This document shows, piece after piece, positions 1,456-12,404 of a stretch of 64,000 nucleotides of DNA. Each line of letters starts with the position of its first letter. Position 1 is the first letter of the stretch. Both the position numbers and the translations under genes were made by a program. Under the pieces are notes generated by a model, which saw only the letters and a list, made by a program, of their open reading frames with translations, did no database searches and was not told the DNA's origin. The stretch is from an uncultured Pseudomonadota bacterium (lineage in GTDB: Bacteria; UBA10199; JADFYH01): contig CAYLKF010000001.1 in the NCBI GenBank assembly GCA_964384365.1, positions 212,079 through 276,078 of the forward strand. The letters run 5' to 3'.

Positions 1456-3690
1456 ATGCTCGATTTCTTCAGAGATATTTTTTCGGCCGACTTCATGCCT
1501 CACGGACACTGCTATTTATGGACGCCTTCTATTCTTTGGTCGATGGTTCTTTCAGATCTCGTCATTACACTGGCCTACTACTCGATTCCCATTTCTTTAA
1601 TTTATTTGGTTCGAAAACGAAAAGACATTCCCTTTGATTGGGTATTTTGGATGTTTGGTGCCTTTATTTTTCTCTGCGGCACAACTCACCTAATGAGTGC
1701 AATAACCACCTGGGAGCCTGCTTATCGACTCGAAGCCCTGATTAAAATCTTAACAGCCTTCATCTCTATTATTACAGCCATTGCCGTTTGGCCCTTGATT
1801 CCTCGTGCCTTGAAAATTCCCAACCTTCAACAACTCCAAAAGATGAAGCTGGAATTGGAAAGAAACGAAAAAAAGTTTCGAGATCTCGTCGAGTCGGCGC
1901 CAGATGCCTTGGTCATGATCAACAAAGAAGGTAAGATTGTCATGGTCAATGAGCAAACCCAAATTTTATTTGGATACGAAAAATCAGAACTCTTGGGAAA
2001 ATTAGTAGAAATCTTGATTCCAGATCGCTTTCACAAAGCTCACCCACAACACCGAAACAGTTTTTTTAACCACCCTATCCGCAGGCCCATGGGCACAGGG
2101 CTTCAACTCTATGCAAAGCGAAAAAATGGCACAGAATTCCCGGTTGAAATCAGCTTGAGCCCTCTAGAAACCGAAGAAGGCCCCCTTGTTACGGCAGCGA
2201 TTCGAGATGTCACAGAACGCAAAAAAATTGAGCAAATGAAGAATGAATTCATTTCAACGGTGAGCCATGAACTTCGAACTCCCCTCACCTCTATTCGAGG
2301 ATCCTTAGGGCTCATCGATGGAGGCTTGGGGGGTGAAATCTCAGAAAAATCTAAGCCCTTGTTAGAGATGGCTATTAACAACTGCGAGCGTTTAGCAAGA
2401 CTCATCAACGACATTCTAGATATTGAAAAAATTGAAGCAGGAAAAATCGAATTTAAGATGGAGGAAATTTCTGTTCAATCTCTCATTAAACAAGCCATTG
2501 CTACAAACGAGTCTTACGCAAAACAATATAAAGTTGAGTTTCTTTTAGAAAAAGAAAGTACTGATCTCTCCGAAGTAAAAATAAAAGGAGATAACGATCG
2601 TTTAATTCAAGTTTTAACAAACTTGCTTTCAAATGCAGCAAAATTTTCACCTCCTCATTCCAAAATACGAACGTCAATTACCAGAAACTCTTCATTCATT
2701 CGCGTGTCTGTGAAAGATGAGGGTTCCGGAATTCCAAAAGAATTTCAAAACCGTATTTTTCAAAAGTTTGCACAAGCAGATTCTTCGAGCACTCGCCAAA
2801 AGGGTGGCACAGGTTTGGGCCTCAGCATCACTAAAAGCATTGTTGAAAAACACCAGGGAACCATTGGCTTTGAACCGAATTTACCACAGGGGACCACTTT
2901 CTATTTTGATATTCCGGAATACGTGTCTCCGAAACCGGTTTCTGCAATTGAAGAAAACTCTCCAAAACCTCGGATACTTATTTGCGAAGACGATGCCGAT
3001 GTTGCGCGTTTATTGCAAATGATGCTCGATCAAGCGGGGTGTCAAAGCGATATTGTTTACACAGCAAAACAAGCCGAAGAATTCTTAGAAAAAACCCCTT
3101 ACGACGCAATGACTCTCGATATTATGCTTCCTGATCAAGATGGAGTTTCTCTGATTCATCAACTTCGAGAAAACCCAAAAACGCGCGAAATCCCAATCAT
3201 TGTAGTTTCTGTGGTGGCTCAAAAAACAAAACAAGAAGTAGAGCTCAAAGGAGATAGCATCAACATCATTGACTGGATTCCAAAGCCTATCTCTCCGCAT
3301 CGTCTTTTCAATGCAATACACACAGCACTTCGAAAGCACAAAGAACCTCATATCCTTTATGTTGAAGACGATACAGATGTGATTCAGGTGATTTCGAGAA
3401 TGTTAGAAAATGTAGCGCAGTTGACGGCTGCTTTCTCTTTGCGAGAGGCCAAAGAGAAAATTCAAAATGAAAAATTTGATTTGATTCTTTTAGATCTTGT
3501 GCTTCCCGATGGAAATGGAATTGAACTACTTCCCTTTTTAAAAACCTCTTCGGGCAGACCAATTCCCGTAGTGATTCTTTCTGCTCAGGAGGTCAATACA
3601 GAAGTCAAAAAACTCGTTGCAGCCACTTTGGTCAAGTCTTTGGCTTCGATAGAAGATATTGTGGGAACTATTCAATCGCTCCTGAAATGA
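1456..3690 (+). CDS. Hybrid sensor histidine kinase: N-terminal membrane domain, PAS, HisKA, HATPase, two receiver domains
   Basis: ATG at 1456. H-box ISTVSHELRTPLTSIRGSL, G-box GGTGLGLSITKSIV, two REC domains with conserved Asp (TLDIMLPDQDG and LILLDLVLPDGNG). N-terminal hydrophobic region with HGHCYLW motif. Confidence 0.9.
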   Translation: MLDFFRDIFSADFMPHGHCYLWTPSILWSMVLSDLVITLAYYSIPISLIYLVRKRKDIPFDWVFWMFGAFIFLCGTTHLMSAITTWEPAYRLEALIKILTAFISIITAIAVWPLIPRALKIPNLQQLQKMKLELERNEKKFRDLVESAPDALVMINKEGKIVMVNEQTQILFGYEKSELLGKLVEILIPDRFHKAHPQHRNSFFNHPIRRPMGTGLQLYAKRKNGTEFPVEISLSPLETEEGPLVTAAIRDVTERKKIEQMKNEFISTVSHELRTPLTSIRGSLGLIDGGLGGEISEKSKPLLEMAINNCERLARLINDILDIEKIEAGKIEFKMEEISVQSLIKQAIATNESYAKQYKVEFLLEKESTDLSEVKIKGDNDRLIQVLTNLLSNAAKFSPPHSKIRTSITRNSSFIRVSVKDEGSGIPKEFQNRIFQKFAQADSSSTRQKGGTGLGLSITKSIVEKHQGTIGFEPNLPQGTTFYFDIPEYVSPKPVSAIEENSPKPRILICEDDADVARLLQMMLDQAGCQSDIVYTAKQAEEFLEKTPYDAMTLDIMLPDQDGVSLIHQLRENPKTREIPIIVVSVVAQKTKQEVELKGDSINIIDWIPKPISPHRLFNAIHTALRKHKEPHILYVEDDTDVIQVISRMLENVAQLTAAFSLREAKEKIQNEKFDLILLDLVLPDGNGIELLPFLKTSSGRPIPVVILSAQEVNTEVKKLVAATLVKSLASIEDIVGTIQSLLK

Positions 3691-6800: not shown

Positions 6801-7013
6801 GAATGCTTCTTCACGCGCTTCTTTTGAAACCTTGGGATTGATGCGATCAATGGCTTCTTTGAGTTTATCGATTAAGAGAACGTCCTCAAAATTCGAACGC
6901 AGTGGATTTTTTTCTCCTGCCGCAATTTCAGGACCGTAGAAGTATTGATAACCTTGCTTTTGCAAAAGCTGGATGGAGAATTCTTCGATGTGGGATTCGG
7001 TGAGGAGAGTCAT
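3861..7013 (-). CDS. hsdR: Type I restriction enzyme R subunit (HsdR)
   Basis: Walker A TQGSGKS and DEAH box VVIADEAHR. The track start at 7028 is a TTG; I prefer ATG at 7013..7011, which overlaps the upstream gene's TGA stop (ATGA) and has a G-rich stretch about 7 nt upstream. Confidence 0.9.
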   Translation of the reverse strand: MTLLTESHIEEFSIQLLQKQGYQYFYGPEIAAGEKNPLRSNFEDVLLIDKLKEAIDRINPKVSKEAREEAFRQVQRIHSPELMNNNESFHRMLIEGVNVLVREGSEERGDYVWLIDFENPENNDFCIVNQFTVIENNQNKRPDIILFVNGLPLMVIELKNPADENATIKSAFDQFRTYKSSIPSLFTYNSFVVISDGLEAKTGTISSDYSRFMAWKSVDGKAEASHLVSQLEILIQGMLNKKTLLDLIQNFIVFEKHKKEDPQTGITSIETVKKVAAYHQYYAVNKAVDSVLRASSETGDRKGGVVWHTQGSGKSLTMVFATGKIVRALNNPTILVITDRNDLDDQLFDTFAASKQLLRQDPVQAKDRKDLKNLLKVASGGVVFTTIQKFQPEEGNVYEELSNRSNIVVIADEAHRTQYGFKPKTVDEKDAQGNVIGQKLVYGFAKYMRDALPNATYLGFTGTPIEGTDVNTPAVFGAYVDIYDIAKAVEDEATVRIYYESRLAKVELSSEGKKLVEELDKELSDEDLSEMQKAKAKWTQLEALIGSEHRIQNIAKDIVSHFEARQEVFEGKGMIVAMSRRIAVALYDAIIQLRPEWQSEDLSKGFIKVVMTAASSDGPELSKHHTTKEQRRTLASRLKNPEDPLKLVIVRDMWLTGFDAPCLHTLYIDKPMQGHNLMQAIARVNRVYKDKKGGLVVDYLGIASDLKKALSFYSDSGGKGDPAVTQEKAVALLLEKLEVVSQMFSGFNYENYFSANTSQKLSLILSAEEHILGLEKGKKRFIDEVTALSKAFAISVPHEQAMDAKEEVAYFQAVKARLVKFDSTGSGKNDEEMETTIRQLIDRALVSTQVVDVFDAAGIKKPDISILSEEFLLEIKNMEHKNIALETLKKILNDEIKVRLKKNLIQGKHLLEMLEDSIKRYHSKIITAAEVIEELIKLAKDIKSIDEEPKTLGLSDHEYAFYTAVADNQSARELLGKDKLRELAVVLTEKIRQNASIDWTIKESVRAQLKVAVKRTLRQYGYPPDMQALATEMVLKQAEMIAGELTQKLD

Positions 7014-8053
7014 AACTCTACCCCCCAAATATTTACTGATTTCGCATCAAACAAATTAACCTTACATTTGAATGATGAGTGAATGGATTTTATATGTTTT
7101 ATATCTTTTTCAGAATAAACACCTATATAAACACTCCATAATTTGGAATCTATATCTTGTTTAGATGCTTTGTTGATAGCATCAATAATATGTTTGTCGT
7201 AATCTCCGAAATTAAAACCAAAAGTGATTAATGAACCTTCTATTGAAGAAAGTTTTTTGTAACAAAAATCAAGATATTGATTGTGTAAAATATGAGAAAG
7301 TTTTTGTTCTCCATCTCCTGCTGTTACAAATACAGGGTATTCCTTATTTTCCATTCTTGTTTTAATATTTTTTAACAAATAATTTCCGTCGTAGATTTCC
7401 TTACTTATTGCAGTGCCACTATCAAATAAATGTAATGCACCGTGTAAGTAATGCACATGTTGTTCCGTACGATTATTACCCCATTCGAGATCGCCGGCTT
7501 CAGCCTCGGCATTTTTATCATCTTCATCATTTATGAAATATTCTCTACCGAAACCGTCTATGATGTTGGCAATACCATCTTGCGAACTCATCAAAACCCA
7601 ATAAAGCAACAAATCGTAATTTGTTGTAAATACATGGCCGTCATTATCAAGATACTCCTTAAGAAATGTTGCACAAAGATTTATTCTATTTTGAGGAATT
7701 TTAAAAATATGCTCAGGATGCAACTGAGAAACGGCATCAATTAAATTTTTCTTTAATGACTCGCTAGCGGCCTTTATTGTACTAGCTAAATTTTGATCTT
7801 TAGAAAACTCAGTGGCGAGTGCGCAAAACACGTCAAGCTCCCTCATGATTTGTTCAAAATTGTATGTTTTAATTATATCAAAAAGTTTCTTTAAAAACTT
7901 ATTATCCGTTTTAAGAAGAAAATCACTTAGGGCGTTATACGAAAATATGGCTTTATCATAAGCCATACTGAAACCATTACCTAACAGTAAGTGTTTAGCT
8001 CTTTTTTTCTTATTCAAATAATTAATAATGTCAGAATACTTTTTAAGCTCCAT
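7010..8053 (-). CDS. SIR2-like (ThsA / SIR2_2 / DUF4917-type) putative NAD+-consuming effector
   Basis: Four motifs in the canonical order: Gly-rich loop LLLGNGFSMAY, FTTNYDLL, HYLHGALH, ITFGFNFGDYD, matching the ThsA SIR2 motifs GAGxS / TTNYD / HGD / GFSFxD as I recall them. Sampled lines give about 25-33% G+C, lower than hsdR. Confidence 0.6.
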   Translation of the reverse strand: MELKKYSDIINYLNKKKRAKHLLLGNGFSMAYDKAIFSYNALSDFLLKTDNKFLKKLFDIIKTYNFEQIMRELDVFCALATEFSKDQNLASTIKAASESLKKNLIDAVSQLHPEHIFKIPQNRINLCATFLKEYLDNDGHVFTTNYDLLLYWVLMSSQDGIANIIDGFGREYFINDEDDKNAEAEAGDLEWGNNRTEQHVHYLHGALHLFDSGTAISKEIYDGNYLLKNIKTRMENKEYPVFVTAGDGEQKLSHILHNQYLDFCYKKLSSIEGSLITFGFNFGDYDKHIIDAINKASKQDIDSKLWSVYIGVYSEKDIKHIKSIHSSFKCKVNLFDAKSVNIWGVEL

Positions 8054-8054
8054 G

Positions 8055-8702
8055 TTATTCTGTCTCTACATTAAACATCTTACATTCAACCGCATAAGCT
8101 CGTGGATCTATGTTATAAAGTATTTCACTAGCTAGATACGAATATTCTCCCATTACAAACTCACCAAATGAATCATCCCAAAATTCATTAAAATCTGAAT
8201 TGTCTTGGTATTCAGAAATTTTCTCCTCAGTTTGTGCTACAGTTGTAAGGGGTGATGATGTTTCAAATCCTCTAATTAATAAAGAAGCCACAATTTCAGT
8301 GGAATCGATCAAAAATTCTTTTGCTAAATGATCAATTTTATTGTTCCTATTTTTTAATTCCTCAATAGTCATACCATGAGAAGTTGAGCCAATATCGTTA
8401 CGTAAATTTCCCATCTGCTGGCCAATAGTTGCCAGAGATCTTGAAATTTGATTGACGAGTTCTTCGCTTTTATAACCAATGGCTATAAAAGCACTTTTCA
8501 AAACCGCATTCATATTTGAGGTGTTTGGCAAGGTAACATCTTTAATTTTACAAATTTCCTTCCCTATCGTTTCAAGAAGAGCTTTTGCATTTTCAAGTGA
8601 TAAGCTGAAATCAGTTTCAGCATATGCTTCTATGCGGCTTACAAAAACCTCAATATCTTTCCATCTCCCGTGTTGCTCTATGACAGCTTTTAGTTTCTGC
8701 AT
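8055..8702 (-). CDS. Hypothetical 215-aa protein, partner of the SIR2-like gene; acidic/aromatic C-terminal tail
   Basis: ATG overlaps the hsdS stop (TAATG); its stop lies 1 nt before the SIR2-like ATG. No catalytic motif recognised. C-terminus EYQDNSDFNEFWDDSFGEFVMGEY is acidic and aromatic-rich. Confidence 0.6.
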   Translation of the reverse strand: MQKLKAVIEQHGRWKDIEVFVSRIEAYAETDFSLSLENAKALLETIGKEICKIKDVTLPNTSNMNAVLKSAFIAIGYKSEELVNQISRSLATIGQQMGNLRNDIGSTSHGMTIEELKNRNNKIDHLAKEFLIDSTEIVASLLIRGFETSSPLTTVAQTEEKISEYQDNSDFNEFWDDSFGEFVMGEYSYLASEILYNIDPRAYAVECKMFNVETE

Positions 8703-9928
8703 TAGAGTGCTTCCTCTTCATACTTCACCCTCACCTCACCACTCATCAGTTTAGGTAAAAGAGTGTCGCGAAGTTTTTCTAAATTTCTTATTTGTTGGTG
8801 ATTCGAATCAATTTTTTCCCAGGCATTTTCGGTAAAATTACAAAAAGTATGTAGGATCTCTTTTGAAGGTAATTGAAACTCAACAGTTTCAATGTCAGAT
8901 GGTTTTAGAGATGGATAAGTAGAAGTTGAAGCTTCAGCAATTGTGCTTAGATATTCCGTCATTTCATTCTGAGTAAGGAGATAATAAATAAAATGCGGAT
9001 TAATAGCACTGCAAGTGAGTACGCAAAAACCAGTTGAAACAACTAAGTTATTAGGCGGATTTTTAATAAATCCATAATGTTTATGATTAGGCCTGACTGT
9101 TGAAACGATAATATCATTATGTTGAACTAACCTTTTGGCCCGACTAGGAGAATCTTTTAGGGAATAAATTTCAAATTTTTCAATTTTCCCTTCTGTAATA
9201 GAACCAGTATCCAAATATTTAATAATTTCGTAAGGATGATCCGTCCTGAGTGTAGAAATATTAGTTTTTGCAATGTCACCTATAGTAATATTTGGCCAAC
9301 TTGGATTAGCCTCCTCCACAAACCACTGCCGAAAAAGTGTTTCAGCAATAGCTTCTAGGGTTTTGTTTTGGCGGTGGAGGAGGTCAATTTTGTCATCCAG
9401 GCTGGAGAGAATTTCGGCGATGGCTTTTTGTTCGGGGAGAGGTGGTAAAAAAAATGCATAATTTTTTATTGCCGTTGGAGAAGTATGTTTTATTGATGTT
9501 CCAGATGATGCGCTGACAATATATTGTTGATACTCTCTAGTTCGCATTAACCAATAAATAAATTCTCTATCCGTATTATTATTATTATTATTATTTTTAA
9601 ATTTAACTAAACCAACTCGTTGATTATGGAGAAAAATGACACCTTCCATATAAGGTATCTTTGCTGTATACCCTAAAGTATCACCGTCTTTACTTAAATC
9701 GGTCATAGTAACAATAATGTCGTCTGGTGTAAGAATATATTCTTTTGGAAAATCAGAGGATGAAAAATACTTAAACTTATCCTGCTTAAACCCACCCCCA
9801 ATATGAAAGTTTCCAGGGGTAACTAGAATTTTATCTGTTTTTTCTTGAGTTATATATTTTCCCTTAAAAGCATAACCATGCTTTATATCTATGACTTCAC
9901 CTAATGTTGTTTCTTCCCACTCACCCAT
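8702..9928 (-). CDS. hsdS: Type I restriction-modification specificity subunit (HsdS), two target-recognition domains
   Basis: Conserved central region LPPLPEQKAIAEIL...LLHRQN and C-terminal repeat LPSKEIL...LEKLRDTLLPKLMSGEV. Start overlaps the hsdM stop by 8 nt. Confidence 0.9.
   Translation of the reverse strand: MGEWEETTLGEVIDIKHGYAFKGKYITQEKTDKILVTPGNFHIGGGFKQDKFKYFSSSDFPKEYILTPDDIIVTMTDLSKDGDTLGYTAKIPYMEGVIFLHNQRVGLVKFKNNNNNNNTDREFIYWLMRTREYQQYIVSASSGTSIKHTSPTAIKNYAFFLPPLPEQKAIAEILSSLDDKIDLLHRQNKTLEAIAETLFRQWFVEEANPSWPNITIGDIAKTNISTLRTDHPYEIIKYLDTGSITEGKIEKFEIYSLKDSPSRAKRLVQHNDIIVSTVRPNHKHYGFIKNPPNNLVVSTGFCVLTCSAINPHFIYYLLTQNEMTEYLSTIAEASTSTYPSLKPSDIETVEFQLPSKEILHTFCNFTENAWEKIDSNHQQIRNLEKLRDTLLPKLMSGEVRVKYEEEAL
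9577..9597 (-). repeat. (AAT)7 trinucleotide repeat inside hsdS encoding a poly-Asn run
   Basis: Plus strand reads (ATT)x7; minus-strand translation ...KFKNNNNNNNTDREF in the first target-recognition domain. Confidence 0.85.
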
Positions 9929-11438
9929 TCAAAACCACCTTCGCTAAATTCTCTAAAATACGTTCATTGAGCTTAACTTCTTCTTTCATCTGAGCTTCCA
10001 ACTCCGCTTTGAGAACGGTAAAGCGTTCTGCAAAATTGAAATCATCTTCAATATCTTCCAAGCCCACATAGCGGCCTGGGGTCAGCACATAATCCAACTC
10101 CTGCACACGCTGGATGCTAGCTGAATTGCAGAATCCTTTTATGTCTTGATATCCATCGTCTTCCGATCGCCAGTTATGATAAGTTTGAGCAATTTTTTGG
10201 ATGTCTTCGTGAGAAAATTCTTTTGTGCGTCGATTGATGAGATGGCCGAGGTTACGGGCATCGATAAATAGAATTTCTTCCCGGCGATAGGTTTTGCCAC
10301 GTCGCAAAAACCATAAAGAAGCGGGGATTTGCGTATTCAGAAACAATTTGGCGGGCAAGTTAACGATGCAATCCACTAAGCGAGCTTCGATCAGTGCTTT
10401 GCGGATTTCGCCTTCGCCGGAGGATTTAGAAGTAAGCGCCCCTTTCGCCATGACAAAACCGGCATGGCCACTCGGAGATAAATGATAGAGGAAATGTTGA
10501 ATCCAGGCATAGTTGGCATTGCCACTGGGAGGAACGCCATATTTCCAGCGACCATCATTGCGGAGCAAATCACCGCTCCAGTCGCTATCATTAAAGGGAG
10601 GATTCGCGATGATGAAATCAGCTTTTAGATCTTTATGCGTATCGTTAAGAAAAGAACCTTCGTTGTTCCATTTCACTTGTGAGCTATCAATACCACGGAT
10701 GGCAAGATTCATTTTCGCCAAGCGCCAAGTGGTTTGATTGCTTTCTTGACCATAAATGGAAATATCGTTGATGCGGCCTTGTCGAGCTTCCACAAATTTT
10801 TCGGATTGAACAAACATTCCCCCTGAACCGCAGCAGGGGTCAAAGACTCGGCCTTTATAGGGCTCCAACATTTCTACCAGTAATTGCACAATAGAGCGAG
10901 GCGTATAGAACTGTCCCCCTTGTTTACCTTCTGCTAATGCGAATTCACCCAGAAAATATTCAAACACATGCCCCAGTATATCGGCACTGCGGGCTTTACT
11001 TTGTTCAATATCGATATTGCTAAATTCATCGATGAGTTTGCCTAAGTTGGCAGAATCTAAATTTCCTCGGGCAAAAACTTTTGGGAGGACTCCTTTGAGG
11101 GAAGGATTATCGCGCTCGATAGCATCCATTGCAGCATCGATGTCTTTTCCTATCTCTGGCAGCTTGGCCCGTGACTGCAAGTAGTTCCAACGCGCGGAAG
11201 GAGGCACAAAAAAAACATTCTTGGCTTTGTATTCGTCACGATCTTCCGGGTCGGCTCCCGCGAACTCTCCTTCGCCTTTTTTGAGTTGTTCATAAATTTC
11301 TTCAAAGGAACTTGAAATATATTTTAGAAAAACCAACCCCAAGACGACATGCTTGTATTCTGCCGCATCAATGTTTTTGCGAAGTTTATCCGCCGCTTCC
11401 CAAAGTTTTTTTTCTAATGATTCAATTTTTGAAGTCAT
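9921..11438 (-). CDS. hsdM: Type I restriction-modification N6-adenine DNA methyltransferase (HsdM)
   Basis: Motif I DPCCGSGGMF and motif IV FIIANPPFN. ATG at 11438..11436 with AGAGGGAG just upstream. Confidence 0.92.
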   Translation of the reverse strand: MTSKIESLEKKLWEAADKLRKNIDAAEYKHVVLGLVFLKYISSSFEEIYEQLKKGEGEFAGADPEDRDEYKAKNVFFVPPSARWNYLQSRAKLPEIGKDIDAAMDAIERDNPSLKGVLPKVFARGNLDSANLGKLIDEFSNIDIEQSKARSADILGHVFEYFLGEFALAEGKQGGQFYTPRSIVQLLVEMLEPYKGRVFDPCCGSGGMFVQSEKFVEARQGRINDISIYGQESNQTTWRLAKMNLAIRGIDSSQVKWNNEGSFLNDTHKDLKADFIIANPPFNDSDWSGDLLRNDGRWKYGVPPSGNANYAWIQHFLYHLSPSGHAGFVMAKGALTSKSSGEGEIRKALIEARLVDCIVNLPAKLFLNTQIPASLWFLRRGKTYRREEILFIDARNLGHLINRRTKEFSHEDIQKIAQTYHNWRSEDDGYQDIKGFCNSASIQRVQELDYVLTPGRYVGLEDIEDDFNFAERFTVLKAELEAQMKEEVKLNERILENLAKVVLNG

Positions 11439-11536: not shown

Positions 11537-11818
11537 CTACCTTCTCATATCAGGCCCCACCGTTACAAATTCACCCAAGCTTTCTAAACCTTCTCGAATA
11601 TGCGCGTTTCGCACATGCTCGAAGGTAACTTGGGCGCCCCACTCTTCGATAAAATTAAACTGATAAGTTTCGCTTGGATTTTGTTGAAATTCAAAACCCA
11701 AACATCCCGCACTTTTTAAAGCCGCAGCAATGGTGATACTCAAAAAATTCTTCATCGCTTCTTCTTGACCCGGCAAGGCTTTATAAAGTGAAATCATCCT
11801 CACAGTTTTACGGCGCAT
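11537..11818 (-). CDS. Antibiotic-biosynthesis-monooxygenase (ABM) family protein
   Basis: About 93 aa with an ABM-like pattern (ISLYKALPGQEEA...GCLGFEF...FIEEWGAQVTFEHVRNAH). The track start is a TTG at 11830; first ATG at 11818 has GGAG 6 nt upstream. Its 3' end is the right direct repeat. Confidence 0.6.
   Translation of the reverse strand: MRRKTVRMISLYKALPGQEEAMKNFLSITIAAALKSAGCLGFEFQQNPSETYQFNFIEEWGAQVTFEHVRNAHIREGLESLGEFVTVGPDMRR
11538..11626. repeat. Right direct repeat (the intact 3' end of the ABM gene)
   Basis: 86/89 identity to 3735..3823. Confidence 0.85.
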
Positions 11819-11850
11819 TTTTTTCTCCAATTTACAAAATTAATTTTGAT

Positions 11851-12038: not shown

Positions 12039-12404
12039 TCAACTTTTATCTTCTAGATTTTTAATTAATCCGCTAAGCATTTTGGAAATTTCAACACATT
12101 CTTGTCGAAATATTTTATATTGCTCCGACGAAATGGATTGAAGATCCAGTCCAAGTTCTAAAAGGGGCACACACTCATAAGTTGATCCTCTTGCTATAGT
12201 GTAAAAATTTTTCTTTTCTTTTAAAGACTCTCTCCCCCCACCTTCTGCTATGTTTAAAGTAATACTCATCGAAGCCCTGCGAAGTTGATCACACCACGAA
12301 AAATTATTTTTTGAAAATGGGCTTATTACTTTTATTATTTGTTTAGAAAAAACAAGCGCCCTCTGATAAACATGTAACTTTTCAAATGAGAACTGTTCGT
12401 CCAT
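12039..12404 (-). CDS. Four-helix-bundle protein (23S rRNA intervening-sequence protein / Avd-like family)
   Basis: Family-typical pattern LHVYQRALVF...DQLRRASMSITLNIAEGGGRES...FYTIARGSTYEC. Confidence 0.8.
   Translation of the reverse strand: MDEQFSFEKLHVYQRALVFSKQIIKVISPFSKNNFSWCDQLRRASMSITLNIAEGGGRESLKEKKNFYTIARGSTYECVPLLELGLDLQSISSEQYKIFRQECVEISKMLSGLIKNLEDKS

Follow-up and report, generated by a model that had tools for sequence, protein, structure and literature searches.

A DUF4917 (PDC-S21) gene embedded in a type I restriction-modification operon encodes a candidate stand-alone SIR2-like NAD+-cleaving enzyme

The stretch of DNA analysed here, called the window throughout, comprises 64,000 nucleotides (nt) from an uncultured Pseudomonadota bacterium (GenBank assembly GCA_964384365.1, contig CAYLKF010000001.1, positions 212,079 to 276,078). 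The element of interest is a single gene of the DUF4917 family, a candidate for cleavage of nicotinamide adenine dinucleotide (NAD+), which sits inside a type I restriction-modification (R-M) operon. The operon reads hsdM-hsdS-Abi_C-DUF4917-hsdR, with all genes on the minus strand and tightly packed (Table 1): hsdM and hsdS overlap by 8 nt, hsdS and the Abi_C gene overlap by 1 nt, a gap of 1 nt separates the Abi_C and DUF4917 genes, and the latter ends in an ATGA overlap with hsdR. The mechanically generated list of open reading frames (ORFs) places the start of hsdR at a TTG codon (position 7028), giving a 19-nt overlap with the DUF4917 gene. The true start is probably the ATG at 7013, which overlaps the DUF4917 stop codon as ATGA and yields a protein of 1050 amino acids (aa), in agreement with the hsdR gene call on an identical Logan contig (L001). 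The DUF4917 gene itself opens with ATG and runs for 347 codons. The initial annotation had pointed to this ORF without giving its strand; the ORF list bears it out, on the minus strand, and the plus-strand frame over the same interval is riddled with stops.

Table 1. Features of the R-M operon and of the DUF4917 gene (window coordinates)
Feature	Position	Strand	Evidence
hsdM, type I methyltransferase, 505 aa	9921..11438	-	Pfam HsdM_N and N6_Mtase, E=9e-111; PADLOC MTase_I, E=8e-197
hsdS, type I specificity subunit, 408 aa	8702..9928	-	Pfam Methylase_S, two stretches; PADLOC Specificity_I, E=8e-100
Abi_C-domain gene, 215 aa	8055..8702	-	Pfam Abi_C, E=2.7e-7
DUF4917/PDC-S21 gene, stand-alone SIR2-like protein, 347 aa	7010..8053	-	
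GNGFS, residues 25-29, loop rich in glycine that follows strand 1, matching the G-X-G NAD-phosphate loop	7967..7981	-	
'Small domain' of helices, residues ~35-135, lying between strands 1 and 2; proposed autoinhibitory or regulatory lid	7649..7951	-	
FTTNYD, residues 142-147, with putative catalytic Asn145 and Asp147	7613..7630	-	
HYLHGA, residues 201-206, with putative catalytic His204	7436..7453	-	
FGFNFGDYD, residues 278-286, conserved block of strand and loop in the Rossmann domain	7196..7222	-	
hsdR, restriction subunit, 1050 aa	3861..7013	-	Pfam HSDR_N, SWI2_SNF2 and T1RH-like_C; PADLOC REase_I, E=0

At the level of family membership, the 347-aa protein matches Pfam DUF4917 (PF16263) over the full length of the model (E=7.1e-44, residues 22-343 aligned to positions 1-311 of 311), with a score of 150.9 bits against a gathering cut-off of 28. 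In PADLOC-DB it is matched by the PDC-S21 model PDLC04960 (E=1.1e-109, residues 1-343 on 1-334 of 336) and by a second PDC-S21 model, PDLC04961 (E=1.6e-64), after which only generic SIR2 models follow. The Pfam family SIR2_2 (PF13289) is passed marginally (27.4 bits against a gathering value of 24.5, residues 140-306), and a search of NCBIfam returned no match. PDC stands for 'phage defence candidate', a catalogue of 145 candidate systems that were nominated since they were found embedded in BREX, DISARM or type I R-M loci (bioRxiv 10.1101/2024.01.29.577857). The window gene fits this definition, being a single gene for a protein of about 345 residues, embedded in a type I R-M operon and on the same strand. 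The protein shows no feature that sets it apart from its family (the nearest relative is 72% identical), and the locus additionally holds the Abi_C gene. The gene is a further member of a catalogued candidate family, neither a new kind of system nor ThsA, the Thoeris effector that the initial annotation had named alongside SIR2. A literature search for PDC-S21 found no paper mentioning it.

The translation contains the four motifs that the initial annotation had read from it, in the same order (Table 1), and the Asn and His that it had equated with the catalytic residues of ThsA are present as N145 and H204; in ThsA itself, NAD+ cleavage is abolished by N112A and by H152A (PMC7272460). The putative catalytic residues of PsSIR2 are N163, D165 and H212 (PMC11472057), the first two of which correspond, by alignment numbering, to N145 and D147 of the window protein. 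In SaSir2 the dyad is N226/H287, and activity is abolished by H287A (PMC11514289). The GNGFS loop holds the equivalents of G24 and G26 of the Campylobacter jejuni DUF4917 protein SliP, both of which have been mutated (PMC10421069). Local alignment to Escherichia coli Sir2 (8j4u_A) pairs FTTNYDL with FTTNYDL, LHGAL with LHGSL and FGFNFGDYD with NGFGFGDYH, and the TTNYD block aligns also with FTTNYDL of PsSIR2.

Conservation within the family falls on the same positions. In the alignment of 57 homologs (A1), G25, N26, G27, F28, N145, Y146, D147, H204 and G205 are invariant. In a second alignment (A6), made of 67 divergent DUF4917 members at about 30-35% identity, the invariant residues are N26, G27, E67, Y146, D147, H204, G205, K251, G279, D286 and H288, with G25, F28, S29, N145, H112 and P113 conserved in at least 90% of members. 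Judged from these alignments, the residues assigned to the NAD pocket (G25-N26-G27-F28-S29, N145/D147 and H204) are retained in the window protein.

Direct sequence matches to solved structures are local and weak (hidden Markov model (HMM) alignments to 8j4u_A and 8w9l_A, E ~0.1), and a fold comparison was therefore needed. An AlphaFold2 model was built on the 57 homologs, with a predicted local distance difference test (pLDDT) score of 80.3 and a predicted template modelling (pTM) score of 0.82. Searched against the PDB with Foldseek, it returned the Sir2 subunits of E. coli SIR2-HerA/Nezha as best matches (E down to 7.5e-11), followed by human FAM118B and SIRT5. Among the structural matches, ThsA stood in the middle of the ranking, no closer than ordinary sirtuins, and SirTM ranked well below the defence NADases. 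The predicted structure combines a Rossmann fold of the SIR2 type with a small domain of helices; a Rossmann-like SIR2 fold is the one on which the initial annotation had staked its reading.

The small domain is modelled as six helices at lower confidence (pLDDT 56-71), and it occupies the position of the small domain of PsSIR2 (residues 53-130). The latter has been described as blocking the NAD pocket, with its deletion activating the NADase, and a similar autoinhibition has been described for ThsA; by analogy, the helical insertion of the window protein may act as a lid. At the other end of the chain, the initial annotation had left about 70 residues without a recognised domain. This does not hold, as the DUF4917 match extends to residue 343 and the model places two further strands and helices in this part with pLDDT >90. 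In the model the small domain is made up of helices alone. Cysteines occur only at positions 77, 127, 264 and 330, without any CxxC pair, so that the protein lacks the zinc module found in sirtuin deacylases. The zinc finger, together with the FEG loop, has likewise been reported missing from bacterial defence SIR2 proteins. Finally, a Pfam scan found no fused sensor domain in the protein, which consists of a single domain.

The composition of the operon is uneven. With 31.3% G+C (GC) and 26% GC at third codon positions (GC3), against 42.9% GC for the window, the DUF4917 gene is as AT-rich as the initial annotation had judged by eye, its 60-nt lines ranging from 18 to 43%. Gene-wise GC and GC3 values, combined with a profile in steps of 200 nt, delimit a sharp-edged low-GC block at 7010..9930 (about 29-37% GC, with GC3 about 25% versus about 42%). 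This block comprises exactly the DUF4917, Abi_C and hsdS genes, and the flanking hsdM and hsdR genes have the native composition of the window. This pattern suggests that the operon acquired its variable central part in one piece, through recombination within the conserved hsdM and hsdR flanks. Inside the operon, promoter-like sites were fewer than in shuffled sequences and a terminator scan found no convincing internal terminator. The sole strong terminator-like hairpin lies upstream of the operon (11882-11858, minus strand), with an 11-bp stem and a T-run, and is the strongest in the region.

DUF4917 is a large family, with 4027 matches at E<=1e-5 in clusters of 90% identity, spread over many phyla and including one archaeon. 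At 50% clustering and E<=1e-10 there are 1503 representatives, and most of the full-length ones measure 330-380 aa. Neighbourhoods were counted over the best 80 species-representative loci. Parts of a type I R-M system, detected by phmmer with the Hsd proteins of the window, lie within 8 kb in 18 of them, and eight loci show strict embedding, with hsdR downstream and either hsdM or hsdS upstream, on the same strand. A Pfam census taken two genes out on either side is led by Methylase_S, N6_Mtase, ResIII, HSDR_N, GmrSD_N and MmeI_Mtase, with AbiEii, HamA, Mrr_cat, RVT_1, HD-CE and DarT also among the leading families, and this census contains no recurrent partner gene. Single look-ups gave the order hsdS-DUF4917-hsdR in L003/L004, and a DUF4917 gene placed after hsdR and GmrSD in L002. 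With regard to mobile elements, no member of the family was found among the INPHARED phages, and distant relatives (about 30% identity) occur on 36 plasmids and on 14 IMG/VR contigs. One homolog, from Flavobacterium sinopsychrotolerans (L070:7989-9032), falls into two ORFs, one at 7989-8540 and one at 8673-9032, and is apparently a disrupted copy.

Other cassettes were observed in R-M operons with the same type of HsdR (T1RH-like_C), placed between hsdM and hsdS or hsdR. They include a TIR_2 protein with ORFs of no known family, Bro-N, KilA-N and a distinct SIR2_2 protein of 376 aa (L003/L004, 4166-8004; L087, 4970-5824; L089, 4988-5806; L002, 1768-2898), and embedded genes seem to have a hotspot in the T1RH-like_C family of R-M systems.

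The Abi_C gene next to the DUF4917 gene was considered as an obligate partner and rejected in this role. Specifically, an Abi_C homolog (the family gave 1219 matches) adjoins DUF4917 in only one of the 80 loci, with the order swapped (L012), and Abi_C occupies the hsdS-Abi_C-hsdR slot without DUF4917 in all three look-ups that were made. It is a resident embedded gene of this type of R-M system and not a partner of DUF4917.

Around the operon, a four-helix-bundle protein of the 23S_rRNA_IVP family (E=1e-29) is encoded at 12039-12404 on the minus strand, just upstream of the R-M genes and before the terminator-like hairpin, and this hairpin is separated from hsdM by an ORF of 97 aa (11537-11830) that matches ABM below threshold. 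On the other side, a hybrid histidine kinase (1456-3690, plus strand) converges on the 3′ end of hsdR; it consists of an ETR1_N domain resembling the N-terminus of ethylene receptors (E=1e-39), PAS, HisKA and HATPase domains and two receiver stretches. The remaining genes of the window are housekeeping genes (GlnE, ThiC, type II secretion, purine synthesis), among them genes for a UvrD-type helicase and for PD-(D/E)XK nucleases that are read as AddAB-like.

Several known systems offer themselves for comparison. The closest fold is that of the Sir2 subunit of SIR2-HerA/Nezha (PDB 8w9l, 8j4u, 8su9), at about 15% identity. Despite this, membership of that system was rejected for want of a HerA gene: no HerA ATPase was found among the window neighbours or among the 25 top families listed for the rest of the window, and none is among the 25 top families listed in the neighbour census of the 80 loci. 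Activation driven by HerA is thus impossible for the window protein, given that no adjacent gene encodes one. In DSR1 and DSR2 the SIR2 domain is extended at its C-terminal side by a large sensor region. No region of this kind exists in the single-domain protein of 347 aa, and members of its family measure about 330-380 aa. PrrC of the EcoprrI system is an abortive-infection effector whose gene, like the window gene, lies in a type I R-M operon between hsdS and hsdR; it is an anticodon nuclease which the R-M complex silences until a phage anti-restriction peptide sets it off. This coupling to restriction is a feature of PrrC, and most relatives of the DUF4917 gene lie outside R-M operons.

A functional precedent is lactococcal AbiH, a reportedly sirtuin-like abortive-infection protein encoded by a single gene, for which phage resistance has been demonstrated and depletion of NAD+ suggested (PMC13064643). 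AbiH shares with the window protein the proposed logic of a stand-alone SIR2-like effector, its mechanism likewise being only proposed. The resemblance is functional or architectural only, the AbiH family not being among the three Pfam families that match the 347-aa protein at E<=0.01. Within DUF4917 itself, SliP of C. jejuni (Cjj81176_0779) carries a G-N-G at residues 24-26, and its gene shares an operon with the directly adjacent type I hsdR (Cjj81176_0780) (PMC10421069). Compared by its published description only, it has the G-N-G at nearly the same position as the window protein and shares its hsdR context. It was published as a flagellum-secreted NAD-dependent histone deacetylase that promotes neutrophil activation, and the purified protein lowered NAD+ in vitro (PMC10421069). 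This loss of NAD+ is compatible with a NADase, and a reading of SliP as a defence NADase appears not to have been considered.

Against this background, the odds lean somewhat towards the window gene encoding a stand-alone SIR2-like NAD+-cleaving enzyme of the DUF4917/PDC-S21 family, occupying the variable central part of the R-M operon as a single-gene cassette and acting in defence through NAD+ depletion. Hydrolysis as the chemistry (rather than transfer or deacylation) and the role in defence are what we infer for this protein. The enzyme would stay inactive, its small domain probably covering the NAD pocket (as in SIR2-HerA Sir2 and in ThsA), until a phage-derived cue released it. It would then hydrolyse NAD+ to ADP-ribose and nicotinamide, and the resulting depletion would serve as a second barrier behind restriction by aborting the infection. 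A number of points weigh against this interpretation. The PDC systems are explicitly unvalidated (DefensePredictor left them out on this ground) and no member of the DUF4917 family has been demonstrated to protect against phage, while the only biochemistry available for the family, that of SliP, was taken to show a secreted effector that deacetylates lysine in an NAD-dependent manner. Detectable type I R-M genes lie near only about a fifth of the relatives, some of which are found among ordinary genes (e.g. L005). In addition, the matching of active-site residues is drawn from local HMM alignments that are weak (E about 0.1) and from global fold scores, the small domain is modelled at low confidence (pLDDT 56-71), and sequence cannot tell NAD+ hydrolysis from ADP-ribosyl transfer.

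The published reading of SliP can be extended to the window protein, which would then be a sirtuin-type NAD-dependent lysine deacetylase of cellular or host proteins and not a phage defence enzyme. This is unlikely, since the protein lacks the zinc-binding Cys4 module and its nearest structures are defence NADases rather than deacylases, and since the family occurs in free-living bacteria and in an archaeon that have no animal host, among restriction and defence genes (SliP itself shares an operon with hsdR). Moreover, the assays of SliP are untypical of a sirtuin, in that zinc alone raised the deacetylation signal 3.11-fold against 1.92-fold for NAD+ (PMC10421069). Chemistry of the SirTM kind, with ADP-ribose transferred to a phage or host macromolecule instead of NAD+ being simply depleted, is compatible with the same pocket residues and is also improbable: the place of SirTM in the fold ranking speaks against it, no macrodomain or other reversal enzyme was found next to the gene by Pfam, and the conserved N...D...H set is that of NADase-type defence Sir2 proteins.

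It could also be argued that the gene has no function here and was merely carried along with a horizontally exchanged hsdS segment, as its place in the sharply bounded low-GC block with hsdS and Abi_C is consistent with recombinational import between the hsdM and hsdR flanks. Such a hitch-hiker is very improbable, because the ORF is intact and of full length with all family-invariant residues kept, translation is coupled to that of hsdR via the ATGA overlap, and the family is large, of constant length and under evident purifying selection. The initial annotation had read the protein as SIR2/ThsA. The SIR2 part of this reading stands (DUF4917, SIR2_2 and the fold all agree with it), but the ThsA part does not, and a Thoeris effector activated by a cyclic ADP-ribose isomer made by a TIR protein deserves hardly any credence. 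The window protein does share with ThsA a SIR2-like NADase domain, the catalytic Asn and His, and a proposed autoinhibition relieved on activation. However, it has neither the SLOG (STALD) domain nor the N-terminal transmembrane domain of ThsA (no SLOG match in Pfam), DUF4917 filling residues 22-343 of 347. No TIR or ThsB gene lies beside it or appears among the 25 top families listed in the whole-window Pfam and PADLOC scans, the PADLOC model of ThsA is not among its matches, and the Sir2 subunit of SIR2-HerA is the nearer structure. Since both SLOG and ThsB are missing, membership of the ThsA family is refuted, and Thoeris was rejected as an assignment for the locus.

A more specific proposal builds on the preferred reading of the gene as a defence NADase. 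In the fashion of PrrC, the DUF4917 NADase and the Abi_C protein would guard the type I enzyme, remaining silent in the presence of an intact R-M complex and being freed by a phage anti-restriction protein, with both effectors translated together with HsdR. This proposal is doubtful. If it were true, one operon would couple restriction to two suicide effectors, namely NAD+ depletion and possibly a HEPN-like RNase, and SliP would, as a corollary, primarily be an R-M-embedded anti-phage NADase.

For specialists the locus holds nothing unexpected, because DUF4917 already figures in a catalogue of defence candidates. More broadly, NADases of the SIR2 type recur among the effectors of bacterial immunity. 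To our knowledge, all characterised defence SIR2 NADases have a partner or a fused sensor, be it ThsB/SLOG, HerA, the C-terminal region of DSR2, pAgo or a STAND NTPase. DUF4917, by comparison, forms about 1500 clusters at 50% identity of proteins of ~345 residues with neither, so that the way in which a minimal SIR2 protein senses infection becomes an experimentally tractable question. The window locus is a clean test case for it, with a restriction system and two embedded candidates in one operon, and it also bears on how SliP, a published 'secreted sirtuin' virulence factor of the same family and genomic context, should be read.

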